This document shows, one piece after another, positions 3,637 to 25,231 of a DNA stretch of 63,323 nt. This stretch comes from a virus. Lineage: Duplodnaviria > Caudoviricetes. The translations under genes were made by a program, and so were the position numbers. Within the stretch, counting starts at the first letter, position 1, and each line of letters starts with the position of its first letter. The DNA lies in the IMG/VR virus record IMGVR_UViG_3300023284_000199, positions 1-63,323 of that record; one strand, given 5' to 3'. A model generated the notes under the pieces. That model searched no databases. It had not been told where the DNA came from and worked only from the letters and a program-made list of their open reading frames with translations.

Positions 3637-3969
3637 CTATGCCCGACTCATATCCATCGCAACGGCGCGCATTTCAGACGCCATCGCATAGACCGACTCT
3701 GCCGGTTCAATGGTGCCAGTTTCAAAGGCGATGAATCCAGACTTACCGACAATGCCTGCCGCGATAATCTGATTCAAGCCTGCGTCTTTCCAGACTTCAT
3801 GCCCGACTTCGAATCTGTCTTGACCGGTTGTTTCATCGTGCCAGAGTCGGACTCGGATTCCACCTTCCCATGAAGCTACAACGGCTCCGATATTGGTTGC
3901 CTTATGCCCGCGTGCTGTTGCATTGGTTTGTCGGGCAGATTCGTCAATTTGAGCGTAAAAGTGACTCAT
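3637..3969 (-). CDS. hypothetical phage protein
   Basis: 110 aa, starts MSHFYAQI..ATARGHK; AAGGA SD. Confidence 0.75.
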   Translation of the reverse strand: MSHFYAQIDESARQTNATARGHKATNIGAVVASWEGGIRVRLWHDETTGQDRFEVGHEVWKDAGLNQIIAAGIVGKSGFIAFETGTIEPAESVYAMASEMRAVAMDMSRA

Positions 3970-3984
3970 GATATTAGTCCTTCC

Positions 3985-4176
3985 TTATAGGTTGATTTTC
4001 GCAACTCGCATAGATTCACAAGTCGCCTGAATCACATTCGAGATATTGCGGTAGGATTCCATTTTCGCTATGCAATCCTCGACACCATAGAAATCGGATT
4101 GATAGGATTCGACAACTGGACTCGCATCAGAGTCATACGAGAGAATCCAGACTGTTAGAATTATCAATTTTAGCAT
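3985..4176 (-). CDS. small protein with N-terminal hydrophobic segment
   Basis: 63 aa; MLKLIILTVWIL; two Cys; GGGAG SD. Confidence 0.6.
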   Translation of the reverse strand: MLKLIILTVWILSYDSDASPVVESYQSDFYGVEDCIAKMESYRNISNVIQATCESMRVAKINL

Positions 4177-4556: not shown

Positions 4557-5402
4557 CTAATTTAGATAATTGGTGAAAACTTTACGCATATTATCTAGCG
4601 ATGATTCAATGGTTTTGAATCCCTTGTATCGAATCATAGGGACATGAATCACAGATTCATTATCCGGTTCGCTAGGGGTATCGCGGCAATCGCCGTAACC
4701 CGGATACCATCGAGTCGCGTGCTTTGCGTCCTGCTCCAATAATCTGAAATGAAGCATGCGCAAAACCGAGGGATGCGCCAGAATATAAGAGAACCGATCT
4801 AGTTCAAGAAACATACCAGGACTCTTGATAGGAAACTCTTGGCGGATATGTGTACCATCGTTTCCAGCCGTATCGATGTATCCGACTAACTCTATTTGGT
4901 ATCCCGCAGTTTCTAGGGCATCGATCATAGAAACTAGAGCGATGCCACGGTTAACGATGGTGTTATGTTTCACCATTCCCGCAACAGTTAGATTCGCCTC
5001 GATTTTCAAGATAGGCAAAACTGGAGAATTTACTTCTGAAAATGCGAGCATGGATTCTGGATTGCCGATTAGAAAATCAGGGACAGAAGGGACGAATCCA
5101 ACAATCGCATTTTCTAAGACTCGGATAGGTTTCGAATCTGTCAAATGCTTGGCTATATCTAAGCCTTGTCTAATCTTTGCCGTTCCTTCTGGCCAACCAT
5201 AGCGCGCAAGCTTCATAGCATCAGCAAACGAACGAATCCCTTCACCGAACCATTCCGGCGGATGACCTGAAATATTCAGAGTCGACATATGCTCATTAGC
5301 CGATTTTGACGGTTGCTCGCATTGATCAAGAAAAGCATCGAAACTTGGCCACGTTTCCATTTTAGGTTTACCGTTCACTTTCCTTTTCCTACGTCTTGCC
5401 AT
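4557..5402 (-). CDS. VWA-like partner of the MoxR AAA+ ATPase
   Basis: 281 aa, coupled to the ATPase; GFVPSVPDFLIGNPESM, RGIALVSMIDALE..G, LAHPSVLR segments; no canonical MIDAS. Confidence 0.55.
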   Translation of the reverse strand: MARRRKRKVNGKPKMETWPSFDAFLDQCEQPSKSANEHMSTLNISGHPPEWFGEGIRSFADAMKLARYGWPEGTAKIRQGLDIAKHLTDSKPIRVLENAIVGFVPSVPDFLIGNPESMLAFSEVNSPVLPILKIEANLTVAGMVKHNTIVNRGIALVSMIDALETAGYQIELVGYIDTAGNDGTHIRQEFPIKSPGMFLELDRFSYILAHPSVLRMLHFRLLEQDAKHATRWYPGYGDCRDTPSEPDNESVIHVPMIRYKGFKTIESSLDNMRKVFTNYLN

Positions 5403-6736
5403 TACATCGCCGCCTTGATTTTGCTTATCGTGGCCGAGTCAAGGTTGCGCCAGATTATCAGGTTCTCGACTTCCTTGAATCCCATGCCTTGAACATCGAT
5501 CAGACGCGAACCTTTTTCAGATGCCCTAGGACTCACAAGATGCTTGAGTCCAATGCTGGCGACTGCCTTGCGAGCCGACTGGACATAATCCACCCATTGC
5601 ATGTTCGTTGAAATCGCACGCTCTAACGACTCGTCAATATCGATAGGCAATTGAATAAAGCGGTCTAGAGTCGTTGCGTCCAATTGAACACGACCTACAT
5701 ATTCACGATCTTGGCCGAGTCCCCACGTGTTCGCGCAAGCTATGCACTTGAAGTCTGGGTGTTGCTTCGCCATGCCATTTGCAAAAGCACAATAACCGTT
5801 CGCGAGTGCCGCATTGACAGCTAACAAAGCATTGGGCGAACAGCCGTCCATTTCATCGAACACGAATCCGCCGCCTTGCGTGAAAGCACGGTAGAAATCG
5901 GTTTCAATATAGTTCCCGTTCGCGTCCATGTATCCAAAAATAGTAAACTTGGTATCAAAAGCACCTTGTAGATAAAACGGAATCCCTAACGCTTCGAAAG
6001 CTTGGACGGCCATATGTGACTTGCCCGTTCCAGAAGTGCCGACTAGATAAACGTGACTCTCCTGTAGAAGCTTAATCAATCGCGGCAATTCATGGTGAGT
6101 GAATCCTTCGACTGCCCGAGTCTCGCCATCACTTTCGACATGGACAACAGTAGGGGTCGGCGCGGAATGTTCCAGAATAAGGCGAACCGCTTGTGATTCC
6201 GTAAGTCCATGTTCTCCGATTAATTCGACAACTCGCGACTCGTCTAGATCAGCCGTTGTGTTTGCCGCTTCTGCTATTGCCCGGATTGCATCTTCCAAAA
6301 CGCTACCGTTGCCACCTGTAGGCTTCACTGGCGCGGATTCCGCAAGTTCTGATGCGTCCCTATCATCTAATACGGTAGCCAGCGTATCACCTTCCCTGAT
6401 GCTTTGATCAAATTCAGTACTTGTGACAACTTCATCGTTAATTGTTGCGATTGCAGAGTCATTACCGAAAGCAGACTCGCCAGTTTGCGCGGATTCTGTC
6501 CATTGGTAATTCTCAATAGTGAATCCCTGATCTACAAAATTCTTCCTAACTTTGACAAAATATCGACGATGATTCCACATTTTCGAAAGAGTCGTATGTC
6601 TCATTTTCTCGACTCGGTCGTCCGGGAATCCCAATTCTTTAGCCCATAACCTCGCTATATCAATGTTGTCATAATCGATGACCGTCTGACCATGTTCGCC
6701 TAGTAGGTCTTGATAATCTCTCGATAAAGTAAGCAT
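5402..6736 (-). CDS. MoxR/CbbQ-type AAA+ ATPase
   Basis: Walker A GTSGTGKS, Walker B FVFDEMD, sensor CANT, arginine finger LDATTLDRF; long N-terminal extension. Confidence 0.9.
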   Translation of the reverse strand: MLTLSRDYQDLLGEHGQTVIDYDNIDIARLWAKELGFPDDRVEKMRHTTLSKMWNHRRYFVKVRKNFVDQGFTIENYQWTESAQTGESAFGNDSAIATINDEVVTSTEFDQSIREGDTLATVLDDRDASELAESAPVKPTGGNGSVLEDAIRAIAEAANTTADLDESRVVELIGEHGLTESQAVRLILEHSAPTPTVVHVESDGETRAVEGFTHHELPRLIKLLQESHVYLVGTSGTGKSHMAVQAFEALGIPFYLQGAFDTKFTIFGYMDANGNYIETDFYRAFTQGGGFVFDEMDGCSPNALLAVNAALANGYCAFANGMAKQHPDFKCIACANTWGLGQDREYVGRVQLDATTLDRFIQLPIDIDESLERAISTNMQWVDYVQSARKAVASIGLKHLVSPRASEKGSRLIDVQGMGFKEVENLIIWRNLDSATISKIKAAM

Positions 6737-10217: not shown

Positions 10218-10576
10218 TGCCAACAAAAGCTGATTTAGAAGCAACTATTGCGACGTTAGAATGGGAGGTTGGGTATCTCAAAGAGGAATTTTATGAATTA
10301 GAACAGAAGGTTCGTCATAGAGTTGCTTTCCCACCACCACAAAATCCTATCATTACATCTTGGCGTAATGATGAAAGTATGATACAAGAATTTCGCATGG
10401 AATCTGTAGGTTTTCATTTTCGTGTGGCTGATGTGATGTCTATGCAATTAGCTATGGATTTTCCTCAGTTTGTTATCGAACAGGCGGGTGATAGTTGGAG
10501 ACAAACAGGAAGAGTGGTTGCACGGAAATTTGTTGAAGATGTTATGGAACGCTGTAATGGGGAATTTAAGATTTGA
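10217..10576 (+). CDS. hypothetical protein
   Basis: 119 aa; TAATG overlap. Confidence 0.65.
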   Translation: MPTKADLEATIATLEWEVGYLKEEFYELEQKVRHRVAFPPPQNPIITSWRNDESMIQEFRMESVGFHFRVADVMSMQLAMDFPQFVIEQAGDSWRQTGRVVARKFVEDVMERCNGEFKI

Positions 10577-10582
10577 TAAGGG

Positions 10583-10683
10583 TTGACGCTCTCGTGTCTA
10601 TGTGTAACATAGATATTGTCATCGTCTACTCCTTAGACCGGTCCCAACAGCGAGATACTGTAAGGTCGGTCTTTTTCTTTTTT
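10583..10683 (+). ncRNA. candidate small RNA (promoter, anti-SD leader, terminator)
   Basis: TTGACG-16-TAACAT, then TGTCATCGTCTACTCCTT, then AGACCG..CGGTCT hairpin with long U-tract; no ORF on this strand. Confidence 0.45.
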
Positions 10684-11061
10684 CGGACATGAAAAAATTG
10701 ATAGATTACAAGAACTTGCGTCTCAGCTTAGAGAAACAGCTAGAGCTATAGAACACGTTTCTAATATCATATATACTGGTCAAGGTATTGATTCTACCGT
10801 TTTAGAAATGTTGAATGCAGAGCTAGAAGGTCATTTCAATGGAGCCATATTAGAAACTGATTGTATGTACCTAAAAGTCAAATCATGGATGGTGGGGGAA
10901 GATGGTACGTATTGAATATCCTGAAGCCAAATTGATTCAAGCAAACGATATTTCTTTAGAGAAGCCTTATTACATAGAATGTAGCTGTGAAGGGGCTGAC
11001 GTGTGTCCGCAAGGGCATATAGGTATGATGATGCACTGTTTTATCTTGGTGAAATCTAAAA

Positions 11062-11349
11062 ATGAATAGAGAAAACATACATGACGTTCCTATAAAAACG
11101 TGGAATCGGTGGTCAGTACTTTCTAAAGAATTATTCAATGCTGTATACGAAGATATACTACAATTGGGACCGGAATTATTTTTTGGTTCTGAATTTGACT
11201 ATGCTCCCTATACTGAATATCAGTTTAATATTATTGCCTGGAATGCTGCTTTTATAGCTGCTGAGCGAAGGGCTAGACCTAACGAGAGAACTGATGTAAG
11301 ATTAATTGATGAATTGGAAGAAGATTGGCGAAATGAGAGGGTTCAGTGA
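11062..11349 (+). CDS. hypothetical protein
   Basis: 95 aa; ..W..WS..SKELFN.VYE...IAWNAAFIAA pattern. Confidence 0.65.
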   Translation: MNRENIHDVPIKTWNRWSVLSKELFNAVYEDILQLGPELFFGSEFDYAPYTEYQFNIIAWNAAFIAAERRARPNERTDVRLIDELEEDWRNERVQ

Positions 11350-11597
11350 TGAAATATGAATTGGGATTTATAATTAGTGGTCCTATAGTGCCGTTTAGTG
11401 GCGATGGTGGGAGTGCAACATGATGGATAAATCTAAAGAACCCGGTGGCGGTGGTACAGGTCCATACAATGCCAGAGATTTACCTCCTTTCGATTGGTAT
11501 GAAGGTTACGGAAGATAATATGCCGAATCATGTAAAACCCGTAAAAGGTAAGAAAAAAGGTTCAAAGAAAGTAAAAGCCAAGTAGTTTAGGAAAACG

Positions 11598-13169
11598 ATG
11601 AATGAGAGTAGACAACCGGGAGACATTCTTGAGCGTAAGCTTGTAGCTGAAAGTGAAGAAGGTCGTGCTGAGTGGTTGTTAACCGTTGAAGAAGACGGTA
11701 CTACAATGTGGCACCCATATTATTTTGACAGTAATGGTGATGTAATTTACGAGCCTGTATGGATGCCACTTCCGGGTTCGCAGTTTCTATTCCTAGAGTG
11801 CCCTGTCTTCGAAGCCATATATGAAGGTACTCGTGGTCCCGGTAAAACCCTTACACTACTCATGGACTTTGCTAGAGAGGTAGGCAAGGGTTACGGCTCT
11901 GCATGGCGTGGAATTATGTTTAGACGCCAATTCGGTGATCTTGATGATGTTGTCAGAAAAATTGAAGAGTGGTTTCCTGTTTTATTCCCTGGATTCCGGT
12001 TTCTGAAATCGAAATCCGAGTACATGGCTATTTGGCCAACGGGAGAAGCCCTTTTATTACGTCACTTAGACAAACCTGAAGATTACGACGAATATCACGG
12101 TCACGAATACCCTTGGATCGGCTTTGAGGAACTTACACAGTGGGAAGACGATGTTGCCTATAAGCTGATGTTCTCTTGCTGTCGTCCTCCTAGACAAGGT
12201 ATCCCTACTAGAATTAGGTCCACTACAAATCCATATGGTGTTGGACATAATTGGGTAAAGCGTCGTTTCAAACTTCCATATCATCGCGGAAAAGTTATTG
12301 ATATTCCTGGCGAAATGCCTAGAGTAGCTATTCATGGTACGCTCGCTGAGAATTTTCTGTTATTGCACGCTCAACCTGAATATCCTACAATCATTCATAA
12401 TGCTGCACGAAATGTTGCTCAAGCATTAGCTTGGTTGGAAGGTGATTGGGAAGTTACAGCGGGAGGTATGTTTGACGACATTTGGAACAGTGATGTTCAT
12501 ATTATTGATAACATTGATTTGGCTGATGTACCTTTCGGATGGACATTGACTAGAGCTTATGATCATGGACAAAGCCATCCTTTCTCTGTGGGATGGTTTC
12601 TTGAATCTAACGGTGAACCTTTAAAACTACCTAATGGGAGGATCATTGGGAATGTTAGGGGTGATTTGATTATGTTTATGGAATGGTATGGCACAACGGG
12701 AAATACCAATGAAGGTTTACGTATGTCTTCTAAACGTATTGCCCAAGGTATACTTGATAGAGAGTTAGATGAAGGTGTGGGGGCTTTGAAATTGATTATA
12801 CCCGGTCCCGCCGATACTGAAATATTCAATAAAATGTCTGATAGACAGAATAAATCCCCGGCAGACGACATGGAAGATGTTGGTGTGCTGTGGGAGCGTG
12901 CGGATAAGTCTGCGGGAAGTAGACACAGAGGATGGGAAATAGTGCGAGAATACTTAAATGGGGCTATCCCTAATCCTGATGGAACTCGTGAACATGCCGG
13001 ATTATTTATATGTCAAAGATGTAAATGGTGGCTCGATTTAGTGCCACAATCACCAAGAGCAGATGATGATCCTGATGACATTCCGAAGAAGTCTGAAGAC
13101 CACGCAGCGGATATGACTCGATATAGATGCTCTTGGGATATACCTGGGATGTTTCGCAGAAGTTTTTAA
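11598..13169 (+). CDS. terL: terminase large subunit
   Basis: Walker A GTRGPGKT, Walker B IGFEELTQW, TTNP coupling motif, nuclease motifs RAYDHG and EDHAADMTRY. Confidence 0.95.
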   Translation: MNESRQPGDILERKLVAESEEGRAEWLLTVEEDGTTMWHPYYFDSNGDVIYEPVWMPLPGSQFLFLECPVFEAIYEGTRGPGKTLTLLMDFAREVGKGYGSAWRGIMFRRQFGDLDDVVRKIEEWFPVLFPGFRFLKSKSEYMAIWPTGEALLLRHLDKPEDYDEYHGHEYPWIGFEELTQWEDDVAYKLMFSCCRPPRQGIPTRIRSTTNPYGVGHNWVKRRFKLPYHRGKVIDIPGEMPRVAIHGTLAENFLLLHAQPEYPTIIHNAARNVAQALAWLEGDWEVTAGGMFDDIWNSDVHIIDNIDLADVPFGWTLTRAYDHGQSHPFSVGWFLESNGEPLKLPNGRIIGNVRGDLIMFMEWYGTTGNTNEGLRMSSKRIAQGILDRELDEGVGALKLIIPGPADTEIFNKMSDRQNKSPADDMEDVGVLWERADKSAGSRHRGWEIVREYLNGAIPNPDGTREHAGLFICQRCKWWLDLVPQSPRADDDPDDIPKKSEDHAADMTRYRCSWDIPGMFRRSF

Positions 13170-13212: not shown

Positions 13213-15156
13213 TTGGTACACGAAAAAGACCCTAAAAGTCCTGAAACAACTTCTGTAGCATATGATGCTATGGTTGATAAGTGGGATATGATTGAAAAAC
13301 TATTAGGTGGTACTGCCGCACTTCGTAAGTCGGGCCAAGCGTATTTGCCTAGACACGAAGAAGAATCCAGTTCGGGTTATGAAGAACGTTTGAATAAAGC
13401 TACTTTGTTTAATATGTTGGAACTAACATTGAATTCTTTGGTAGGTAAACCGTTTTCAGAACCGTTAAAACTCAATGAAGACATTCCAGAACCTATCATG
13501 AACCTTACAAACGATATTGATCTTCAAGGTAATGAAATAAGTATATTTTGTCGTAACTGGTTTAAAACTGGTATAGCTAAAGCCTTTGCTCATGTATTGA
13601 TAGATTTTCCTACCCTTACTGATGAAGAGAAGTCTACAAGAAGCAAGGCAGATGACTTACAAGAGAATAGACGCCCTTATTGGGTATTGGTAAATCCTGA
13701 AAATGTTATTTTTGCTTATTCAGAGATAGAAAACGGTGCAGAAGTTCTAAAACATATAAGAATCAGGGAAATTGTCACTATTAAAGAAGGATTCGCTGAA
13801 ATATTCGTTGAACGTATCAGAGTCTTGGAACCTGGGACTTTTGAAATTTTTGAGAAGAGAAAAGACAAGAAAACCGGTAAAATCAAGTGGGTTAGTATCG
13901 AAGAAGGTACAACTGGCTTAGATATTATACCTTTGGTCACTTTTTATGCGGATCGTCAAGATTTGATGTTTGGTAAACCTCCTTTGGAAGATTTAGCCTT
14001 TTTAAACATACGTCATTGGCAGAGTACGTCTGATTTGATCAATATCTTGACTGTTGCCAGTTTTCCAATGCTTGCTGTTGCGGGAGCCACGGATGTAACC
14101 GGAAACACTATGGCTATCGGTCCAAGGCAGCTTCTAGGCACGAAAGACCCGAATGGTAGGTTCTATTACGTGGAACACACTGGTAGAGCTATTTCAGCCC
14201 TCAGAGAGGATTTAAAAGACGTTGAACAGATGATGGCTAGTTATGGAGCCGAATTCCTTAGACGTAAGCCCGGTGCCCAAACTGCTACGGAAAGAGCCTT
14301 GGATTCTTCGGAATCTATGAGTGATTTGAAAGATGCGACTCTTAGATTTGAAGATGTTATCAATAATGCTCTAGCCATCACTGCTATGTGGATGAAACTT
14401 GAAAGTGGCGGAACTGTTGAAATAAACACTGATTTTGATAATAGTAACGTGGATGAAGCCACTTTACGCAGTTTGTTGGAATCTCGTGCTAACGGTGATC
14501 TTTCTAGAGAAGATTTCTTGGCAGAATTGCAAAGATACGGAATTTTGTCTGATGACTTCGATTCTAAAACAAATCTTATGAGATTGTTGATGGAAGTCGC
14601 AACAATGGGATTAGACGTAAAGACAAAACATTCTGGAGTCATGATAAGCGACCGAAAAAAGGACATTTTTCTTGAAACGCTCGCTTCAACTGGTCAAGTC
14701 CAAATATCTGCCAATGTTGCGGGATATGCAGATACAAGTCACCTTCAACGTGTCAGAAGAACAGATGACAAGTTTGCAGAGCGTTGGGAACAAGCTTTGG
14801 AAGCTGCTGCTGATATACTTGAAGATGAAGCGCAAAGACGTGCGGTAGCCGGTGTTTATGAAGATATTTACTACAAAGGTGAAGTTGTAGGTTCTCAGAT
14901 TAAATACAGTGACCAACTGTTAATGTTTCTATTAAGAGGTGCTAAGCCCGGTAAGTACCGTGAAAGTATTAGAATTGATGCGACGCTCAAAGGTAAAGTT
15001 GGTGTGGCTGTTTTGCCTATGACTGCTATTAATACAGACCTTTGGGAACAATCAGCAGCAGCAGTGCATGAAGCACAAAAGAAAACACCCCCACTTATAG
15101 ATTTAGAGCCGGGACAGTATGAAGATGTAACTCCTACTGAGATAGTGAGAAAATAA
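13213..15156 (+). CDS. portal protein (DUF4055 type) fused to a C-terminal terminase-small-subunit-like domain
   Basis: aa 1-~460: LLGGT..YLP..EE...Y..RL..A, KPPLEDLAFLNIRHWQSTSD portal motifs; aa ~465-647: FLETLASTGQV..FAERWEQALE..LEDEAQRRAV.G..KYSDQLLMFLLRGAKPGKYRE. Confidence 0.88.
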   Translation: MVHEKDPKSPETTSVAYDAMVDKWDMIEKLLGGTAALRKSGQAYLPRHEEESSSGYEERLNKATLFNMLELTLNSLVGKPFSEPLKLNEDIPEPIMNLTNDIDLQGNEISIFCRNWFKTGIAKAFAHVLIDFPTLTDEEKSTRSKADDLQENRRPYWVLVNPENVIFAYSEIENGAEVLKHIRIREIVTIKEGFAEIFVERIRVLEPGTFEIFEKRKDKKTGKIKWVSIEEGTTGLDIIPLVTFYADRQDLMFGKPPLEDLAFLNIRHWQSTSDLINILTVASFPMLAVAGATDVTGNTMAIGPRQLLGTKDPNGRFYYVEHTGRAISALREDLKDVEQMMASYGAEFLRRKPGAQTATERALDSSESMSDLKDATLRFEDVINNALAITAMWMKLESGGTVEINTDFDNSNVDEATLRSLLESRANGDLSREDFLAELQRYGILSDDFDSKTNLMRLLMEVATMGLDVKTKHSGVMISDRKKDIFLETLASTGQVQISANVAGYADTSHLQRVRRTDDKFAERWEQALEAAADILEDEAQRRAVAGVYEDIYYKGEVVGSQIKYSDQLLMFLLRGAKPGKYRESIRIDATLKGKVGVAVLPMTAINTDLWEQSAAAVHEAQKKTPPLIDLEPGQYEDVTPTEIVRK

Positions 15157-15365
15157 TGGCTCATATAAAAGTAATTTCAGCTTGGCAGACTAATTTTCTA
15201 CGTCAAGTGCAGCAAGGGCATCATGTGACTATCGCGGCAAAGAAAGCTGGAGTCGGACTTGAAAAACTATATCATACAAGAACCATTGATATAGAATTTG
15301 CAAGAAAGTGGGAAGATACTAAAAAAGAAGCGAATGAAAGAATAGGGAAAACAGTTGCGTGGTAA
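15156..15365 (+). CDS. small HTH protein paralogous to the TerS-like N-terminal domain
   Basis: WQTNFLRQVQQGHHVTIAAKKAGVG...LY..R..D.EFARKWED. Confidence 0.65.
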   Translation: MAHIKVISAWQTNFLRQVQQGHHVTIAAKKAGVGLEKLYHTRTIDIEFARKWEDTKKEANERIGKTVAW

Positions 15366-15456
15366 ACGTTTAGGTTGACATATCACACATTTTAGTCAAT
15401 ACTTATGTTTACTCGCTAGTGGGATACTAGTTTAAAAGGTGACAAGGAGAAGACAG

Positions 15457-16272
15457 ATGGAATTCGATTTTAGTAAACACATGACTGGTGTTGCGTCTTT
15501 GGATGTGATACCCGACGCTTATAAAGGTCTGTACGAAGAACAAGCAGACAACACTTTCTCTGTTGCAGATTCGGCAAAAGGTATTGTTGACGCATACGTG
15601 GGTCAAACAGGTGCTTTAACTACAGTACGTGGTGATCTTACCAAATCTAACGATGAAAGTGCCGGAAGACGTATCAAACTTTCAGATTATTCAACTCTGC
15701 TTACTGAGTTGGGAGTTAATGTTCCTGACGGTGAAGAAGCTACTGCTGTTTTAAAAGCTTTCATTACTGAATTGACCACACAAGTTGCAGGCGGAAAAGA
15801 AATTCAGATTAATCTGGATAAAATTAAAGCTGACGCAGACAAGCGTGTTCAAGAAGCTGTAACTAAAGGCAACGAAAAAGAACAGTTTATGCAATCAGCT
15901 TTGAGCAGACACATGGTTGGTGAAGTGGCTACAGCTGCTTTGGCTAAACTAGAAGGTAGTGTTGATCTTCTAATGCCTCATGTGAAAGAACACTGTAAAG
16001 TTATTCAGGATGGTGAAACATTTGTAGTCCGTGTTGTAGATACAGCCGGGGATGCGCGTAGTAACGGTTCTGGTGGTTGGATGACTGTTGCTGATCTAGT
16101 TACGGAAATGAAAACAGATACGAAATTTGCTCTCGCTTTTAAGAGTGAAGAACTGTCTGGTAGCGGTACAGTACCGGGTTCTACAACTAAGCCTGTAGTT
16201 AAAAAACAGTCTGAAATGTCTGCTACAGATAAGATTTCAGACGGACTTAAAAAAGGTCAACACAAAACATAA
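15457..16272 (+). CDS. capsid scaffolding protein
   Basis: Lies before the MCP; IPDAYKGLYEE N-terminus, coiled coil, ..MSATDKISDGL C-terminus; AAGGAG SD favours ATG 15457; TTGACA at 15375. Confidence 0.8.
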   Translation: MEFDFSKHMTGVASLDVIPDAYKGLYEEQADNTFSVADSAKGIVDAYVGQTGALTTVRGDLTKSNDESAGRRIKLSDYSTLLTELGVNVPDGEEATAVLKAFITELTTQVAGGKEIQINLDKIKADADKRVQEAVTKGNEKEQFMQSALSRHMVGEVATAALAKLEGSVDLLMPHVKEHCKVIQDGETFVVRVVDTAGDARSNGSGGWMTVADLVTEMKTDTKFALAFKSEELSGSGTVPGSTTKPVVKKQSEMSATDKISDGLKKGQHKT

Positions 16273-16483: not shown

Positions 16484-17455
16484 ATGGCTACAGTAACATT
16501 AGCGGAATCAGCAAAACTAGCTCAAGATACATTGGTTGCGGGTGTTATCGAAAACATCGTAACGGTTAACCATTTCTTTGAAGTTTTGCCTTTCGACGGA
16601 ATTGACGGTAACGCTCTAGCGTATAACCGTGAAAACGCTCTAGGTCCAGTTGCTACTACTGGTGTTGGTATTACGGACGGTACAATCGGTCCTGATGCAT
16701 CCGGTGGTGATAACCTTGCAGAACGTCAAGCTGCTAAAGACGCTGCTACGTTCACTCAGGTTACAAGCACACTGACGACAATCATGGGTGACGCGGAAGT
16801 TAACGGCTTGATTCAAGCTACACGTTCTAGTCACGGAAATGATCAAACGGCGGTTCAAATCGGTTCAAAAGCTAAGTCTGCTGGACGTAAGTACCAGGAT
16901 TTGCTTCTGAATGGTGACGGAGCTAACTTTGAGTTTACAGGTTTGCTTACGCTGTGCCCTGCCAGCCAAACGGTTGATACAGGTGTTAACGGTGGTCCTC
17001 TAACATTCGAAATGTTGGATGAACTTATGGATTTGGTTGTGGATAAAGATGGTCAAGTTGACTACTTCCTTATGCACGCTCGTACAATCCGTTCATACTT
17101 CAGTCTGCTTCGTGCATTGGGTGGAGCTTCAATCGGGGATGTTGTAGAACTTCCTAGTGGAACTCAGGTGCCGGGTTATCGTGGTGTTCCTCTGTTCCGT
17201 AATGACTACAATCCTATTAACCAAACTAAGGGTTCGGGATCGGCTCAAACTACAATCTTCGCCGGTACTCTGGATGACGGTTCACGTCACGTAGGTATAG
17301 CTGGTTTGACAGCCGAAAAAGCATCAGGTATTGCGGTGGTTGATGTTGGTGAGTCAGAGAAGAAAGACGAACGTATCTGGCGTGTAAAATGGTACTCAGG
17401 ACTGGCTCTATTCTCAGAACTTGGTATCGCTTGCGCTGACGGAGTAACTAACTAA
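16484..17455 (+). CDS. major capsid protein (YuA-like, HK97 fold)
   Basis: MATVTLAESAKLAQD.LVAGVIENI.TVN..F.VLPFD.I.GN.LAYNRE N-terminus; RVKWYSGLALFS C-terminus; strong SD. Confidence 0.93.
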   Translation: MATVTLAESAKLAQDTLVAGVIENIVTVNHFFEVLPFDGIDGNALAYNRENALGPVATTGVGITDGTIGPDASGGDNLAERQAAKDAATFTQVTSTLTTIMGDAEVNGLIQATRSSHGNDQTAVQIGSKAKSAGRKYQDLLLNGDGANFEFTGLLTLCPASQTVDTGVNGGPLTFEMLDELMDLVVDKDGQVDYFLMHARTIRSYFSLLRALGGASIGDVVELPSGTQVPGYRGVPLFRNDYNPINQTKGSGSAQTTIFAGTLDDGSRHVGIAGLTAEKASGIAVVDVGESEKKDERIWRVKWYSGLALFSELGIACADGVTN

Positions 17456-19781: not shown

Positions 19782-22460
19782 ATGCCATTAGTTACAAGTC
19801 GTACACAACTAAACCAAGGTCTTGAATCAGTTGAATCTGTTACTTTTGGTGCCGGAACCGGTGCAGATATTAACATTACCGGTACGGGATTACCTTCTGT
19901 TGCAGTAGGTGAATTCTTTGAAATTCGCGGGCACCCCCTTGCCACAAATAACGGACTATACTCAGTTGTTACCGTAACTTCCGATACGGCTGACTATGAG
20001 TGTGATAAAGTTTCTGGTGCTGCTCCTGTTATTGATGCTGTTGAAGTTGCCACATGGCTTGGTGCTACCGGTACTGCCACTGAAAAAAGTGTTTTCTTCG
20101 ATACTGCTGCTCTACACATTTATCTTCTTGAACAAGGAAATGTGGATTCCGCTGGTGTTCTTGGACAAGCTATGTATTCATTCGCCATGCAGGAATGGAA
20201 AGATGACAGCTTTATCATAGCTAATGCTCCTTTCCCAATTCTTACAATTGATTCTGACGCTGGTAAGTACATTGTTGGTCAAGACTCTTCAGGTAACAAT
20301 AATGGTTGGAATTGGCAAGATGATACCGGGTTTAGTATTCGTACACGTAAACTTCTTAGAAATTCAGGTTGGGATGAAGTCGATTCTGCTGGTATTACTC
20401 TAAATCGTTATGTAGGTGTACAAACTTTGGGATTGTTTGAAGATGCCGTTAACGACACAGCTTATTTCCAATTTGGTGACGATACAACCGTTGACGATAC
20501 TATCGATTTTGATTTTTCTGGTCCTGTTAATGAAGCTGTACGTTTCTTTGAAAGACAAGCTGACGGATCAATTAATGGTGGAACAGGTATCGCTATTTCT
20601 ACTGATGGAAGAACTTTAACCCGTTCTGACGGTGGAAATTGGCGTACTGACGGTTACATTGTTGGTGGTACAATCGTTCTCCGTGATTCAGAAGATTCTA
20701 CAATGGATGGAAAGTGGAGACTTACTACTGTTGGGGCTGGTGTTGATGGTGTTGTAACAGGCGGTATTGCTGCTCAAGCTACTGTTACAGAAGGTTTTGA
20801 TTTTAATGATAACGGCGGTTCTGAAGATGTTCTAGATCGTAATGATGGAGGGTCGTTTATTGCTGATGGATGGGTTGTTGGTTCTAAAATTATTGTTACC
20901 GGTGCGGAAACTGCTGGAAATAACGGAACATATACGGTTCTTTCCCTAACAGCTACTACAATGAATGTGGTTACGGGTTCATTTGACGTTGCTGACACTC
21001 AAGATGATAATACAGCCGTTATAGGAATGTTTGATGATGCTCTTACTCCTGATATTACAGTTAATGGTGCTATTGACAACGATAACGCTTTCACTTTGAA
21101 AATTCGTGTTCGTGATGCTGATCCTAAAGGTAAAACGTTTGCACAAGCTAACATATCTTCAGCCGGTCGTACTGTTTTAAGTAACTTTTTGTACGCTTTC
21201 CCTCTTGCTAACAGTGCAGATATTAATATTGATGAAACTGATGCTAATATTGATACAAACACTCCTTATACAGGAATGACTATAACGTATTTCAGTACTG
21301 CCCAAGCTAGAGCAGGATTGGTTGGTGGTTCATTTAATTTTGGAATTATCATTGAAGGAAACGATGGTACAAACCAAGAAGTTTATGAATTCGTTCAACG
21401 TCAGTTGAGAAAAACTACTGATATTGATAATGATGGTGATGTTGCCATTGGTCGTGCTATGGATGGTATGATGCGTTTTGTTGGTGCCACTCTTGAAGTA
21501 GGATCACCTGATGGTGGATTGTCTTTCCCTCGTAATCCTGATGGTGGTGGCTCTGGTACATTTATTGATTCTTTGAATGCTACTTCTACTAATGATGTTG
21601 TATTTTATGATAATACAGGGGCAACTAGAACTTTCCCTGAAACTATTGCTGTAACATTGGATTTTAACCAAATTTTGATTGATGATGCGGCTGCTGAATT
21701 TGATCTTTTCTATGATCGTACAATTCGCACAAATCTTACAGATTTTGTTATTCAAACTGGTCCTGATAGAATTACTAGCGCGGGTACTAATCTTCCGAAC
21801 AATGCAGAATCAGGTGTTGGAAGTTACATGCGTGTAAGTGGTCTAACTGGTGGTGATGCTGCTATGAATGGTGTATACCAAATCACTGTTGAAACTACAC
21901 CAGGGGCAGATTGGACTGTTGTAAGATATGATGGTGCTGCTATTGTTGCTGTTTCTGCTTCTACGGTAGATATAGATCAAAATGTTGTGGATACTCCTGA
22001 CGCAATTATTGTTCATACTAATGTTAGTTTAACTGAAACTACAATTTCATTCACTGCACCAGACCTTATAGATGATTCAGGTAGCGGGTTCGGTATTTTT
22101 GCTGTGGGTGACTTTATTGAGGTCGAGGGTACAGCTTCTAATGATGGTATATTTGAAATTGATACGGTTGCTGCTGGTCAAATACAAACTATTGAACAAA
22201 CTATTGTAAACGAATCTGCTGGTGCTTCTATGACAATTACGAAAATTGTTTCTGGATTGGCTGATGTTGATGAAGTGTTCTCATATGATTTTGATGGTAA
22301 TGTTCAAGGTGGAAGAACAATTTCAACCACTACTTTTGTAAAAGCTAAAGCTGTTGGGTTCTCAAGTGCCCAATACATTCAAAGCGATATAGCTTCAATT
22401 GTTACTGGTACGCCTCTGACAATTCCTCTACAAGCACAAACCGAACGTAATACGGCTTAG
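19782..22460 (+). CDS. large virion structural protein
   Basis: 892 aa, acidic and G/T/D-rich; repeated (N)NG.Y.V..V motifs; located in neck region. Confidence 0.7.
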   Translation: MPLVTSRTQLNQGLESVESVTFGAGTGADINITGTGLPSVAVGEFFEIRGHPLATNNGLYSVVTVTSDTADYECDKVSGAAPVIDAVEVATWLGATGTATEKSVFFDTAALHIYLLEQGNVDSAGVLGQAMYSFAMQEWKDDSFIIANAPFPILTIDSDAGKYIVGQDSSGNNNGWNWQDDTGFSIRTRKLLRNSGWDEVDSAGITLNRYVGVQTLGLFEDAVNDTAYFQFGDDTTVDDTIDFDFSGPVNEAVRFFERQADGSINGGTGIAISTDGRTLTRSDGGNWRTDGYIVGGTIVLRDSEDSTMDGKWRLTTVGAGVDGVVTGGIAAQATVTEGFDFNDNGGSEDVLDRNDGGSFIADGWVVGSKIIVTGAETAGNNGTYTVLSLTATTMNVVTGSFDVADTQDDNTAVIGMFDDALTPDITVNGAIDNDNAFTLKIRVRDADPKGKTFAQANISSAGRTVLSNFLYAFPLANSADINIDETDANIDTNTPYTGMTITYFSTAQARAGLVGGSFNFGIIIEGNDGTNQEVYEFVQRQLRKTTDIDNDGDVAIGRAMDGMMRFVGATLEVGSPDGGLSFPRNPDGGGSGTFIDSLNATSTNDVVFYDNTGATRTFPETIAVTLDFNQILIDDAAAEFDLFYDRTIRTNLTDFVIQTGPDRITSAGTNLPNNAESGVGSYMRVSGLTGGDAAMNGVYQITVETTPGADWTVVRYDGAAIVAVSASTVDIDQNVVDTPDAIIVHTNVSLTETTISFTAPDLIDDSGSGFGIFAVGDFIEVEGTASNDGIFEIDTVAAGQIQTIEQTIVNESAGASMTITKIVSGLADVDEVFSYDFDGNVQGGRTISTTTFVKAKAVGFSSAQYIQSDIASIVTGTPLTIPLQAQTERNTA

Positions 22461-22484: not shown

Positions 22485-22901
22485 ATGTGGGGTGTGTGTT
22501 TAGAATATGATAGTAGAGAGCAATTTAGACGTGCTTGGGGATATATAGTACAAGAGTGTTACATACCTAATGCTTGGGAACGAAACACTGCTGAAGGAAT
22601 GGATTATTATTTATGGGAAGACTGGCATTTTAATGCTAGTGTACACAATCTTCCTGATCCTATAATAGTTCTTTCACCTGAAGACGGTTCGAAAATTCAA
22701 GGAAAAGAATCTCTTTATACATTTGAGCATCCTGAAGATGCTGTGTATTTTTTTGGCTCTGATACACGAGATTTACATCACGAACATTTAGAAGGTAGAG
22801 AATATAAGACGGTGTATATCCCGAATAGTGGGTTTATGCATAGTTTTACCGCTGCTGCTATGGTAATCTATGATCGTAAATTAAAGATGGGAATTAACTA
22901 A
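22485..22901 (+). CDS. SPOUT (TrmH/SpoU-like) methyltransferase-fold protein
   Basis: SLYTFEHPEDAVYFFGSD...TVYIP...MHSFTAAAMVIYDR resembles SPOUT motifs II and III. Confidence 0.6.
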   Translation: MWGVCLEYDSREQFRRAWGYIVQECYIPNAWERNTAEGMDYYLWEDWHFNASVHNLPDPIIVLSPEDGSKIQGKESLYTFEHPEDAVYFFGSDTRDLHHEHLEGREYKTVYIPNSGFMHSFTAAAMVIYDRKLKMGIN

Positions 22902-25231
22902 TGGCTATAGTTGACGGTCGTACACTTTTAGATAATGCCAACGCCATTACAAATTGGGGGTCTTATCCTGCCGATGCCACTAATCCTAACTCTGATAGTG
23001 ATACACTTAAATTTGGTACAGCGTCAGTAGCTTTTACTGCTGATAACACTTCAGGTGGTGAAGGTATTTTCTTTGATGATGGTGCAGATAGAGACTGGAC
23101 TGATGACATTGTTTATATGTGGGTTAACATCGCTAATCCGGGGTTGATGGAAACTAAAGCTAATGGAGGTATTCGTATACGAGTTGCTAATAATGCAGGG
23201 TTAACTAATTTTGTTGAAAGAAATTTTGAAGGTTCGGATACATATTCCGGTGGTTGGAAAATGTTTGTCATTGATATGAATGATGTATTTAACCAAGCAG
23301 ATGCTACAGGAGGTACACCACCGGTTATTACTGCGGCTAGGTATATTGGCGTTGTTTGTGATCTTATTACCGGTGCCATGCCTAAGATGCAGGATAATAT
23401 ATTCATCGATTCTTTATGGAGATTGCAAAAAGGTGTTCCCGGTATTCGTGTTGAATCTGATAATGGAGGTTCACCTTGGACTTGGGATGATATACGTGAT
23501 GCTGGTGACGAGTTTGATACTACAAAAGCTTGGGGTCACGTAATAGAAAATCAAGGACAAATTATTTTGTTTTCATCCATAGAATTTGGTGACGCAGCAG
23601 GAACTACCAGTACTGATTTTGATGATTTTACAGGAGCTAAGATTGTATTTGGAGAAGGATCAAACCCATTACCTAATGATATATATGAAATTACCGTGGT
23701 AGGAAATGCTACAGGGACTTGTGACATTAAATTCGGCTCTGTTGTGGGTTCTGGTGCAGATAGACAAGGATTGTTGGGGGGTTCTATATCAACAACAGGA
23801 CCATTATTTACTATTGATGCTGAAACTGATATTGCTGATGTAGATACTGTAAATCTTTATGGAATTAGTATTACAGGAGCAGGAATATGTCAGTTTAGTG
23901 GGTCAACAAAAACAGATTTAATTAGTGTTGTGTTTACTGATTGTGGAGAAATTCAACCAAACGATTCTGAGTGCATAAATTGTTTCCTTATCGCTCCTAA
24001 AGATCGTGGAATGGAAATGTTAGCTACTAATAATATACAAGGGCTTACTTGTATTGCTGGTAGTGATGATGTAAATATTACTCTACTAGGTTCAAGAACA
24101 GATTACACTAATGCGGCACCGGGAGCTAGTACAGATACTTTTACTCATACTGTTACAGCAGGTACAGATGCTTTAGTTGTTGTCTATGGGGGTGAAGGTA
24201 CTGTTAACGTTTCTATAGATTTAGATGGAAATCCTTTTCAAGAAATAATTCAAGGTCAAATTGGTGGAGTGATTACCACAGGAATGTTTGTTCTATTTAA
24301 TCCACCAGTGGTTACGAGTGGTACTATTACAATCTCCTATGGTTCCACACCTTTAAATTTAGGTGCCAGTGCATTCAATCTTGATAATGTTTCTAACATA
24401 GTGCCTGTTAACGATTCAGCGAGAGTTGGAACTGATGTTGGCACAAATCCTGCAAGCGGTACAACAATAAGTCATGAAGTACCTATGGCTGATGCTAATT
24501 CTTATGTTATAGGATTTATCTATGATAACGATTCAACAGTTACTTATGCAGTAACGGGAGGGGCTGATCAAACTGAGGTAGTTGAAACAGCAATCGGTTC
24601 TGAAGCGAAAATTGTTGTGGGAACACTTGAGGTTGGAGTATCAGGAGATATATCTTGGGATACTACCGGAGCAATGACAGGAAGTTTTGGGTTAATAGCT
24701 GTAGAATTTCTTCCATCTTCTGCTGAACATCATATTCATCATAATAATGTAGGAGACGCTTCTATAACTTACACAAATATGGAATTCTTCGGATTTGGTG
24801 CTGCTGGTGGACCTAAATGGCATGGTGAAAACAGTCAATCTGGTGCAGATATAGATATTAGTGCTACAGGTACATCTGATCCGACTGCTAACGAATTTGA
24901 AAACACTGGTGAACCTATATTTGGAACGGTCGTAGTTACTAACAATACTCAAGTTACTTTTGATAAAATGAAAGATAATTCAGAAGTTAGAGTATTCAAT
25001 AATTCAACAGGTGTAGAGATAGCTGGAATTGAAAATGCTACTGCCGGTTCTCCTGAAGATCGTAATTTTGCTTGGACGGCTGCTGCGGCTCTAACTGTTG
25101 ATTATGTTATTCATAATTTCTTAGGTACTGATGATGAAAACTTTGAAACTATTAGAGTCAATGGATTTATTGTACCTAATGATGATGTTACAATTGACAT
25201 TCAGCAAAGACTTGATCGGAATGTCGAATAA
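22901..25231 (+). CDS. large virion structural protein
   Basis: 776 aa, beta-rich and acidic; C-terminal SEVRVFN..TG.EIAGIE..IQQRLDRN. Confidence 0.7.
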   Translation: MAIVDGRTLLDNANAITNWGSYPADATNPNSDSDTLKFGTASVAFTADNTSGGEGIFFDDGADRDWTDDIVYMWVNIANPGLMETKANGGIRIRVANNAGLTNFVERNFEGSDTYSGGWKMFVIDMNDVFNQADATGGTPPVITAARYIGVVCDLITGAMPKMQDNIFIDSLWRLQKGVPGIRVESDNGGSPWTWDDIRDAGDEFDTTKAWGHVIENQGQIILFSSIEFGDAAGTTSTDFDDFTGAKIVFGEGSNPLPNDIYEITVVGNATGTCDIKFGSVVGSGADRQGLLGGSISTTGPLFTIDAETDIADVDTVNLYGISITGAGICQFSGSTKTDLISVVFTDCGEIQPNDSECINCFLIAPKDRGMEMLATNNIQGLTCIAGSDDVNITLLGSRTDYTNAAPGASTDTFTHTVTAGTDALVVVYGGEGTVNVSIDLDGNPFQEIIQGQIGGVITTGMFVLFNPPVVTSGTITISYGSTPLNLGASAFNLDNVSNIVPVNDSARVGTDVGTNPASGTTISHEVPMADANSYVIGFIYDNDSTVTYAVTGGADQTEVVETAIGSEAKIVVGTLEVGVSGDISWDTTGAMTGSFGLIAVEFLPSSAEHHIHHNNVGDASITYTNMEFFGFGAAGGPKWHGENSQSGADIDISATGTSDPTANEFENTGEPIFGTVVVTNNTQVTFDKMKDNSEVRVFNNSTGVEIAGIENATAGSPEDRNFAWTAAAALTVDYVIHNFLGTDDENFETIRVNGFIVPNDDVTIDIQQRLDRNVE

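Follow-up and report, generated by a model that had tools for sequence, protein, structure and literature searches.

Positions 13,213 to 15,156 of the window, by which we mean the whole 63,323-nucleotide stretch of IMG/VR virus record IMGVR_UViG_3300023284_000199 (Caudoviricetes), hold one open frame in which a portal protein continues into a domain resembling the small terminase subunit (TerS). The question raised by this locus is whether it encodes a packaging machine with its DNA-recognition subunit tethered to the prohead, as the first-pass annotation proposed, or whether the fusion has another origin. The features on which the discussion is based are the following (positions in the window, strand, description).

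11062..11349, +, 95-residue ORF in the usual terS slot upstream of terL, without Pfam or PHROG match
11598..13169, +, large terminase subunit (TerL), 523 residues; phrog_2 and phrog_979; 50% identical to the TerL of phage FP1 and 59–66% to those of clade relatives
13213..14616, +, portal part of the fused ORF, residues 1–468; phrog_145, DUF4055, 8xb5 (E 4e-17) and collinearity with the relative's portal P0055
14605..14607, +, in-frame ATG (Met465), candidate start of a free 183-residue TerS, with GGAAG ending 8 nt upstream
14617..15156, +, TerS part of the fused ORF, residues 469–647; phrog_4044, alignment with the free-standing TerS P0002 and Sf6 gp1 fold
14632..14763, +, predicted N-terminal helix-turn-helix (HTH) DNA-binding region, residues 474–517; AF2 helices 10–29, 32–39 and 45–53 of the domain, pLDDT about 90
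15001..15120, +, conserved C-terminal segment, residues 597–636 (domain residues 133–172), predicted by the complex model to contact the TerL ATPase
15156..15365, +, 69-residue paralogue of the TerS N-terminal HTH; phrog_4044 positions 24–81, E 1e-6
15439..16272, +, scaffolding protein; phrog_206, E 3.4e-26
16484..17455, +, major capsid protein (MCP); phrog_212, E 6.4e-64; 70% identical to the FP1 MCP

Composition of the 647-residue open reading frame

Inspection of the + strand confirms the uninterrupted frame that had been described: 13213–15156 is open throughout and encodes 647 residues from a TTG start. Profile searches assign residues 5–461 to the portal family phrog_145 (E 1.2e-121), with a match to Pfam DUF4055 (PF13264) at residues 257–394 (E 1.4e-33, 116 bits against a cut-off of 25), and residues 471–616 to phrog_4044, "terminase small subunit" (E 3.4e-34, profile positions 17–166 of 180). 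The division into about 460 residues of portal followed by about 180 of TerS type is thus upheld by the profiles, the junction lying slightly downstream of where the first-pass annotation had placed it. The relatives of the first part among solved structures are all named portal protein (8xb5, E 4.1e-17 over residues 22–434; 10ec, E 1.9e-14; 11cq, E 2.6e-14), and the gene follows terL and precedes those of the scaffold and the major capsid protein. On these matches, residues 1–468 are a DUF4055 portal. It shares 52–54% identity over residues 1–445/469 with the DUF4055/phrog_145 portals of the YuA/M6-like and FP1-like siphophages (Mesyanzhinovviridae), which have the order terL–portal...scaffold–MCP in common with the window. 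Whereas the portals of these phages end in a short tail and a stop codon, with a MuF-type head morphogenesis gene coming next, that of the window has, in the tail alignment, neither the usual acidic C-terminal tail nor a stop codon and runs into TerS instead.

The second part had been described as carrying HTH and helical motifs of TerS type, an assignment now borne out by family profile, fold, adjacency to terL in distant relatives and a predicted TerL interface. The canonical TerS of phage FP1, encoded upstream of the FP1 terL, belongs to the same family (phrog_4044, E 3.8e-62). Pfam PF20901 (Sf6_terminase) matches the TerS part below its curated cut-off (14.8 vs. 27 bits, E 0.03; 15.9 bits in a whole-window scan) and scores 25.8 bits with the relative P0013; in a profile search of PDB sequences Sf6 gp1 is the top match, though with an E value of no better than 0.63–0.75. 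The AF2 model of the domain has a mean pLDDT of 74.6 (85–93 for residues 21–110) and predicts an N-terminal HTH, a long helix and a β-hairpin, in this order. Sf6 gp1 occupies all of Foldseek ranks 1–6 for this model (best E 0.032, probability 0.99), and VIA-align gives Z values that are middling by the tool's own note: 7.2 for Sf6 gp1 (rmsd 4.0, 95 aligned residues), 4.8 for PaP3 TerS and 4.7 for NV1 TerS. The HTH region (residues 474–517) aligns with the DNA-binding region of Sf6 gp1.

The C-terminal segment of the domain, with conserved columns at G133, P138 and W147, is placed by the TerL–TerS complex model against the N-terminal (ATPase) domain of TerL, the interface comprising domain residues 133–172. 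The model scores 0.79, the best of three controls 0.00; 58 of 80 solved complexes attain the mark used for this score, as against 2 of 110 mismatched pairs. The runs agree in at least 52% of the contacts, with a partner pLDDT of at least 64. The score expresses model confidence from unpaired alignments and could be due in part to a resemblance to terminase complexes already known; the predicted docking fits a true TerS. In distant relatives, 66 loci have an ORF of at least 300 residues directly downstream of the TerS-like gene, of which 37 match Terminase_6N and 12 match Terminase_3, and in isolate phages the homologue of the TerS part is annotated terS and adjoins terL. We infer that the TerS part is the real small terminase of the clade.

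In its phrog_4044 membership, predicted order of fold elements and predicted C-terminal contact with the TerL ATPase, the TerS part matches the Sf6 gp1 type, of which annotated examples occur in Bordetella phage FP1 and in Achromobacter, Pseudomonas (PaMx11, Ab18), Xanthomonas and Rhodobacter siphophages. Genes of this type usually lie upstream of terL, whereas in the window and its clade the gene is found between portal and scaffold; unlike them, the TerS of the window lacks a separate start and forms the C-terminal portion of the portal frame. Both domains of the fused ORF retain their conserved residues.

Separate portal and terS genes in the relatives

In the nearest relative, whose portal is 79–81% identical to that of the window, portal and terS are separate genes. 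Its 490-residue portal (P0055) is collinear with residues 1–468 of the fused ORF at 79% identity and then continues into a 22-residue acidic tail. Residues 464–647 of the fused ORF align without a gap with residues 2–185 of the free-standing, 185-residue TerS (P0002) at 71% identity, genuine similarity beginning at Val7; for both P0055 and P0002 the longest contig listed measures 12,909 bp. The two parts meet precisely at Asp468|Val469 (nucleotides 14616|14617), within the peptide LLMEVATMGLDVK. At the level of protein end points, this comparison shows portal codon 468 joined to terS codon 7, only the first six or so codons of the free-standing terS being missing. The ORF has exactly the length of the corresponding 468 and 179 residues of the two separate proteins. 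The other two frames over 14440–14760 are rich in stops and encode neither a portal tail nor a terS start near the junction. A single-base error or indel as the cause of the fusion is rejected on account of these stop-rich frames and the exact sum of lengths; because the ORF equals residues 1–468 of the relative's portal plus residues 7–185 of its TerS, an in-frame deletion is indicated instead.

The same separation holds for all 23 related contigs that contain both a portal and a terS-like gene. Their order is terL, portal, a tail of 17–70 residues, stop, a spacer of 123–1632 bp and the terS-like gene; spacer ORFs are small, non-conserved and of different families. Frame offsets of 0, 1 and 2 between portal and terS are found in 7, 7 and 9 contigs, and with this spread a conserved readthrough or frameshift between the two genes is rejected. 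The terL, scaffold and MCP genes of the window align over their full length with their counterparts in the relatives.

A search for further fusions of a DUF4055 portal with TerS, as the first-pass annotation had suggested, found none in protein, portal or TerS-locus comparisons. Among 1597 candidates of 355–1133 residues, a TerS region occurs in one, the window's own protein; the other listed portals (n = 119) have 448–589 residues. Within the best 150 of 16,245 matches in a library of 1.84 billion proteins, the best matched stretch never extends past query residue 480. The 209 distinct TerS-like loci include no fusion with a portal, and at the five loci where the TerS-like match lies in an open frame of at least 300 residues no portal sequence precedes it in that frame. 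Long ORFs overlapping the TerS-like matches at two loci (L105 and L044) were rejected as fusions, having no Pfam match and lying in other frames. Exact peptides taken from the TerS part gave five pattern matches among viral contigs, none of them a relative, and the literature search listings show no paper that describes a portal–TerS fusion or a terS gene downstream of the portal. On these comparisons the fusion is a one-off state of a single contig and not a conserved packaging design.

The earlier observation that no terS lies upstream of terL stands, on profile searches of the ORFs, tblastn with FP1 TerS and whole-window scans. None of the ORFs of 95, 55 and 46 residues upstream of terL matches a Pfam or PHROG family; the TerS HTH motif is absent from the 95-residue ORF (11062..11349), whose one homologue lies upstream of terL at locus L008. 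The canonical TerS of FP1 finds no tblastn match in the window, and scans of the whole window with phrog_4044 and PF20901 match only at 14620–15060 and the adjacent 15147–15344. The latter corresponds to the 69-residue HTH paralogue, which compares with the TerS family at an hhalign probability of 93% (E 3.4e-7); the fused ORF stops and the paralogue starts within the shared TAATG, and homologues occupy the equivalent place in several relatives. Some relatives have small TerS-HTH-like ORFs upstream of terL, short and weakly similar (hhalign probability 13.5%); by Pfam/PHROG and motif comparison, no such ORF is found there in the window. A position of terS directly upstream of terL is thus found neither in the window nor in the 23 clade relatives, where the gene is downstream of the portal in every case.

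Origin of the junction and competing explanations

We consider it probable that the 647-residue ORF arose by in-frame deletion, in a clade whose separate terS lies just downstream of the portal gene. By comparison with the relatives, this deletion removed the variable acidic tail of the portal (about 22 codons in the nearest relative), the portal stop codon, the variable spacer (carrying a small non-conserved ORF in relatives) and the first six or so codons of terS, material that looks variable and dispensable. The C-terminus of a portal, its crown, is on the capsid-interior side, and TerL docks outside. A TerS fused at the crown would hence end up within the prohead and apart from TerL; since the portal C-terminus faces the capsid interior, the tethered TerS could not reach TerL, and for this reason a viable phage would need free TerS. 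If the genome is viable, the working TerS would most likely be the free 183-residue protein initiated at ATG 14605, while the domain added to the portal would merely ride along inside the capsid; a genome from which no free TerS is made would probably be defective.

The in-frame ATG reported at 14605 with GGAAG upstream is indeed present, the GGAAG ending 8 nt before it. Given the junction at Asp468|Val469, the encoded Met465 lies inside the portal-derived part, and the portal of the nearest relative has Leu at this position. Anti-Shine–Dalgarno pairing before this ATG amounts to -3.4 kcal/mol; pairing at least as strong precedes 28 of the 34 gene starts and 23% of 203 internal in-frame ATGs. 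No strong ribosome-binding site was found before ATG 14605, whose signal is ordinary or weak among the starts of this phage, and internal initiation there is only plausible. Nested in-frame morphogenesis genes such as lambda C/Nu3 yield a long and a shorter, C-terminal product from one frame, and the window would be alike if ATG 14605 is used; the lambda-type pairs, however, are conserved and tested, whereas the internal start of the window is a possible one with an ordinary ribosome-binding signal. We would give little chance to the fusion being real and viable with fused and free forms both made, the TerS on the crown inside the capsid possibly holding or organising the entering DNA through its HTH, a role likened to that of SPP1 gp7, a portal-bound DNA-binding protein, while the free TerS from ATG 14605 packages from outside.

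We regard as rather unlikely that the fused ORF is an assembly artefact or a minority defective variant, the real phage having separate genes and the interval having been lost in assembly or in a non-viable deletion genome. The fusion is a singleton in all searches, the source record is a metagenome-derived virus contig, classed as linear and 83% complete, and deletion forms do occur in the data, a second portal form (P0056, on another contig) differing from P0055 by a 40-residue internal in-frame deletion. In T4, C-terminal portal fusions are located within the capsid, and no more than about half of the 12 positions accept them (PMC3012670); because of this limit a portal built solely of fused subunits may, by analogy, not work. 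On the other hand, the junction is in frame and only a poorly conserved tail, the spacer and six terS codons are lost, as expected of a selected survivor, the neighbouring terL, scaffold and MCP genes are complete by alignment, and natural DUF4055 portals with C-terminal extensions of about 200 residues exist (P0267, 656 residues; P0313, 627 residues).

A working packaging design, in which a portal-tethered TerS recognises DNA at the prohead with or without a free form, appears improbable to us, even though the ORF is intact with conserved residues in both domains, no other TerS is recognisable in the window, and unassembled portal–TerS rings in the cytoplasm would conceivably expose their TerS end. 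Portals are 12-mers and TerS of the Sf6 type is an 8-mer, a symmetry mismatch that speaks against such a design, as do the predicted TerL-binding segment in the C-terminal part of TerS and the separate genes in 23 of 23 relatives and the nearest relative. The unusual architecture originally claimed, with TerS tethered to the prohead, is therefore not supported: all relatives have separate genes, no other fusion is found, a deletion explains the ORF, and the fused domain would lie on the wrong side of the capsid. Very improbable, finally, is that the terS-like gene encodes a DNA-binding internal head protein replacing a gene of the MuF/SPP1 gp7 type, which would make the fusion a counterpart of portal–MuF fusions. 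The gene does stand in the slot of the FP1 Phage_Mu_F gene, the window contains no PF04233 (MuF) match at E ≤ 1, and the small HTH-like ORFs upstream of terL in some relatives could be taken in the same sense. Moreover, portal genes are directly followed by muf genes and gp7 of SPP1 is a portal-binding protein (PMC5576092), and portal–MuF fusions occur in Microbacterium phages of clusters EA3/EA5/EA8 and EB, the product of the gene next downstream being fused to the portal C-terminus, as in the window (PMC7302621). However, the partner in the window is phrog_4044, a terminase subunit working outside the head, and its fusion is a singleton; the window has no other full-length protein of the TerS family, this one is predicted to bind TerL through a clade-conserved segment, and the upstream HTH-like ORFs are short, weakly similar and lacking from the window.

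Implications for the packaging genes of the clade

If the in-frame deletion left a viable genome, the fused ORF would be a natural experiment on the extra protein load that a portal crown bears at all twelve positions, and it would also ask whether TerS can work from an improvised internal start. Should both forms be made, a terminase subunit would here naturally serve in a second role within the head, in a gene fusion observed just as it arises. Fused ORFs in metagenomic contigs, however striking, call for comparison with relatives before any design is seen in them. What stands on firmer ground is the gene order of the clade: in these uncultured YuA/FP1-like siphophages the only full-length terS lies between portal and scaffold. 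It occupies the slot used by relatives for a MuF-type gene, with an HTH-only paralogue beside it, and pipelines that seek terS upstream of terL will miss the terS of this clade.

The fused reading frame in its genome

The reading frame at 13213-15156 (+) is open over 647 aa from a TTG start codon, and the first residues of the nearest relative's portal, as listed, are those of this ORF. Its residues 5-461 match the portal family phrog_145 (E 1.2e-121), Pfam DUF4055 being matched as well, and residues 471-616 match phrog_4044 'terminase small subunit' (E 3.4e-34). These matches and the open frame bear out the first-pass annotation, which had described an uninterrupted ORF with a portal fused to a domain resembling a small terminase (TerS). 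The window, a 63,323-bp metagenome-derived virus record (class linear, estimated completeness 83%), encodes a siphophage, with replication and nucleotide-metabolism genes (DNA polymerase, exonuclease, ssDNA-binding protein, ribonucleotide reductase) on the minus strand and the structural block arranged head-to-tail on the plus strand. Further features are:

5402-6736, minus strand: 444-aa protein matching phrog_249 'porphyrin biosynthesis' (auxiliary metabolic gene category; E 2.2e-44)
10576-11598: low-coding stretch (about 1 kb) preceding terL; it holds small unassigned ORFs only, and 10576-10902 and 11349-11598 are gaps
15156-15365, plus strand: 69-aa ORF, a TerS paralogue with the helix-turn-helix (HTH) only, its start overlapping the stop of the fused ORF (TAATG)
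19782-22460, plus strand: large ORF (892 aa) between the head and the tail genes; its residues 770-823 weakly match phrog_1236 'head protein'
22901-25231, plus strand: large ORF (776 aa) between head and tail genes, with no family match

The 69-aa ORF resembles the N-terminal HTH part of phrog_4044 (hhalign probability 93%, E 3.4e-7), and this paralogue occupies the same spot in several relatives of the clade. For the two large ORFs no counterpart was found in Bordetella phage FP1 by tblastn. The neighbour of the 444-aa protein (281 aa) belongs to phrog_1909, a family of unknown function. The stretch 10576-11598 could be the site of packaging start or of the genome ends.

The C-terminal part as a small terminase

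The assignment of the C-terminal part as TerS-type proved right, since several independent lines agree: homologues, synteny, the FP1 family and the fold. Free-standing homologues of 108-283 aa were found (53 with E <= 0.001 among 184 candidates), and the best 36 of these, 163-217 aa in length, align end to end. Among isolate phages, homologues annotated as terS, adjoining or just before terL, occur in the Achromobacter JWX, Pseudomonas PaMx11 and Ab18, and Xanthomonas Xp12 groups and in Rhodobacter RcSimone-Hastad. An ORF of at least 300 aa directly follows the TerS-like gene in 66 of the 137 distinct metagenome and viral loci examined; 37 of these ORFs match Terminase_6N and 12 match Terminase_3, two sets that may overlap. 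The canonical TerS of FP1, encoded upstream of its terL, also belongs to phrog_4044 (E 3.8e-62). Partial TerS-like matches (residues ~17-125) turn up often in genomes and MAGs bearing an Alphaproteobacteria label (Nisaea, Thalassobaculum, Puniceispirillum), and one Dehalococcoidia MAG holds several copies; these loci (L165-L244) are probably prophages or related elements.

The AlphaFold2 model of the TerS part, built from an alignment of 36 sequences (mean pLDDT 74.6; residues 21-110 at 85-93), predicts three short helices, a long helix and a beta hairpin. Foldseek against the PDB placed the Sf6 gp1 small terminase in the top six positions (best E 0.032, probability 0.99). VIA-align likewise gave Sf6 gp1 (Z 7.2, rmsd 4.0 over 95 residues), followed by the small terminases of PaP3 (Z 4.8) and NV1 (Z 4.7), values that are middling by the standard of the tool. 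Counting against membership, Pfam PF20901 stayed below its cut-off on the TerS part (14.8 vs 27 bits), and PDB sequence-profile matches to Sf6 gp1 were not significant alone (E 0.63-0.75).

The TerS part was also modelled in complex with the large terminase (TerL) of the window, using for each chain an alignment of relatives from the clade. The score, a model confidence obtained with these alignments, was 0.79 against 0.00 for the best of three controls, a mark reached in 58 of 80 solved complexes and in 2 of 110 mismatched pairs; the runs shared at least 52% of contacts, with a partner pLDDT of at least 64. In the predicted interface, residues 133-172 of the TerS part (ORF residues 597-636), including the clade-invariant G133, P138 and W147, contact the N-terminal ATPase half of TerL. 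Small terminases usually contact TerL through their C-terminal part, and the model agrees with that.

Gene order in relatives and the junction

Among cultured phages, the FP1 group (Bordetella) and the YuA/M6-like Pseudomonas phages come closest, with identities of 52-54% for the portal, 50% for TerL and 70% for the major capsid protein (MCP). The order in FP1 is terS, terL, portal, small ORF, 402-aa head morphogenesis protein (a Phage_Mu_F protein), scaffold and MCP. In the window, tblastn revealed no homologue of either FP1 TerS or the FP1 MuF protein, PF04233 had no match, and the position upstream of terL is taken by an unrelated 95-aa ORF, so that the annotation was correct in placing no terS there. 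Closer relatives are uncultured contigs only (TerL 59-66%, portal 51-64%, MCP 69-80% identity). All 23 relative loci with both genes show the order terL, portal, terS-like, often the HTH paralogue, scaffold and MCP; in each, the portal ends in a tail of 17-70 aa, mostly acidic or proline-rich, and a stop, and a spacer of 123-1632 bp follows, containing small ORFs of differing families in the loci inspected. Frame offsets of 0, 1 and 2 between portal and terS occur in 7, 7 and 9 loci, a spread that gives nothing pointing to programmed readthrough. Judged from these gene orders, terS downstream of the portal is a trait of the clade and the fusion is not.

Small ORFs (87-114 aa) with weak TerS-HTH likeness (hhalign probability 13.5%, E 0.002) lie upstream of terL in five relatives, and locus L085 also has a 73-aa ORF resembling the middle part of TerS; they may be remnants of a canonical terS copy. 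In L085 the HTH-like and middle-part-like ORFs are adjacent (3640-3924 and 3917-4138; 94 and 73 aa; terL at 4131) and suggest a canonical terS copy by terL that has been split or is decaying, in addition to a full copy downstream of the portal.

The nearest relative provides a separate portal, P0055 (490 aa), and TerS-like protein, P0002 (185 aa), and for each of the two the longest contig listed measures 12,909 bp. P0055 is collinear with the window ORF to residue 468 (79% identity) and continues for 22 residues as an acidic tail; P0002 residues 2-185 align without gaps to ORF residues 464-647 (71% identity), real TerS similarity starting at Val469 (Val7 of P0002), hence 468 + 179 = 647. The alignment with 13 other portals identifies the stretch 'EVATMGLD' as portal sequence, and Met465 is therefore portal-derived, its position being occupied by Leu in P0055 and by Ala or Val in the others. 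The window thus has no portal tail, stop or spacer, and its terS is missing the first six codons. Since neither the portal tail nor the terS start is encoded in other frames near the junction, a point indel is ruled out; as read from these alignments, at least ~0.2 kb was deleted, either in the phage itself or during assembly. Another portal homologue, P0056 (450 aa, 5,723-bp contig), corresponds by eye to P0055 minus 40 internal residues of the portal body, lost in frame, and is a further deletion form of the lineage among metagenome sequences.

Rarity, viability and origin of the fusion

Among the sets searched, no other DUF4055-TerS fusion was found, although fusions to portals more distant than the listed matches may have escaped these searches. 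Of 1597 candidate proteins of 355-1133 aa, the window's own protein alone contained the TerS region. Portal relatives gave 891 matches among 8000 scored candidates, and the 119 others among the best 120 listed measure 448-589 aa. An exhaustive search of 1.84 billion representatives returned 16,245 matches at E <= 0.001, and none of the best 150 reached past query residue 480 in its best stretch. The two longest of those 150, P0267 (656 aa) and P0313 (627 aa), are DUF4055 portals with a single portal stretch and C-terminal extensions of ~200 aa without Pfam match, and may be further natural portal fusions. Portal sequence in the same open frame as the TerS-like match was seen in 0 of 209 distinct loci, and in the literature listings searched neither a portal-TerS fusion nor this gene order was described.

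In solved portals the C-terminal crown lies on the capsid-interior side, and a TerS domain attached to Asp468 via a linker of about ten residues would therefore be inside the prohead, the wrong side to meet TerL and cytoplasmic DNA. The proposal of an evolved tethered TerS is thus not supported, the portal C-terminus facing the interior and the genes being separate in 23/23 relatives. A viable phage would need free TerS. From the ATG at 14605, proposed as an internal start, it would have 183 aa (185 aa in the nearest relative), and the N-terminal residues lost are unconserved and of low model confidence. Both the ATG and the GGAAG 8 nt upstream exist; their signal is weak, however, with an anti-SD pairing of -3.4 kcal/mol that is equalled or exceeded at 28 of 34 window gene starts and at 23% of 203 internal in-frame ATGs. 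Among the real starts, the weaker ones are similar, e.g. terL (-4.2) and the scaffold gene (-4.0).

The most likely account, which we consider fairly probable, is that an in-frame deletion recently joined two neighbouring genes, in a clade where terS stands apart from the portal gene but at an unusual place. The main rival, an artefact or a defective variant, appears rather unlikely. The fusion is a singleton, and in P0056, from a different contig, the portal of the nearest relative recurs with 40 aa deleted in frame; both speak against viability and are a caution that these data contain deletion variants or assembly losses. On the other hand, a viable fusion is conceivable because the deleted material is the least conserved of the region, C-terminal extensions of ~200 aa exist in portals of this family, and some Microbacterium phages conserve a portal-MuF fusion (PMC7302621). 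For T4, PMC3012670 describes C-terminal GFP fusions to the portal located inside the capsid, and states that, of the twelve positions, up to about half tolerate a fusion. More durable as findings are the gene order of the clade, the segment predicted to bind TerL and the HTH paralogue that adjoins terS.
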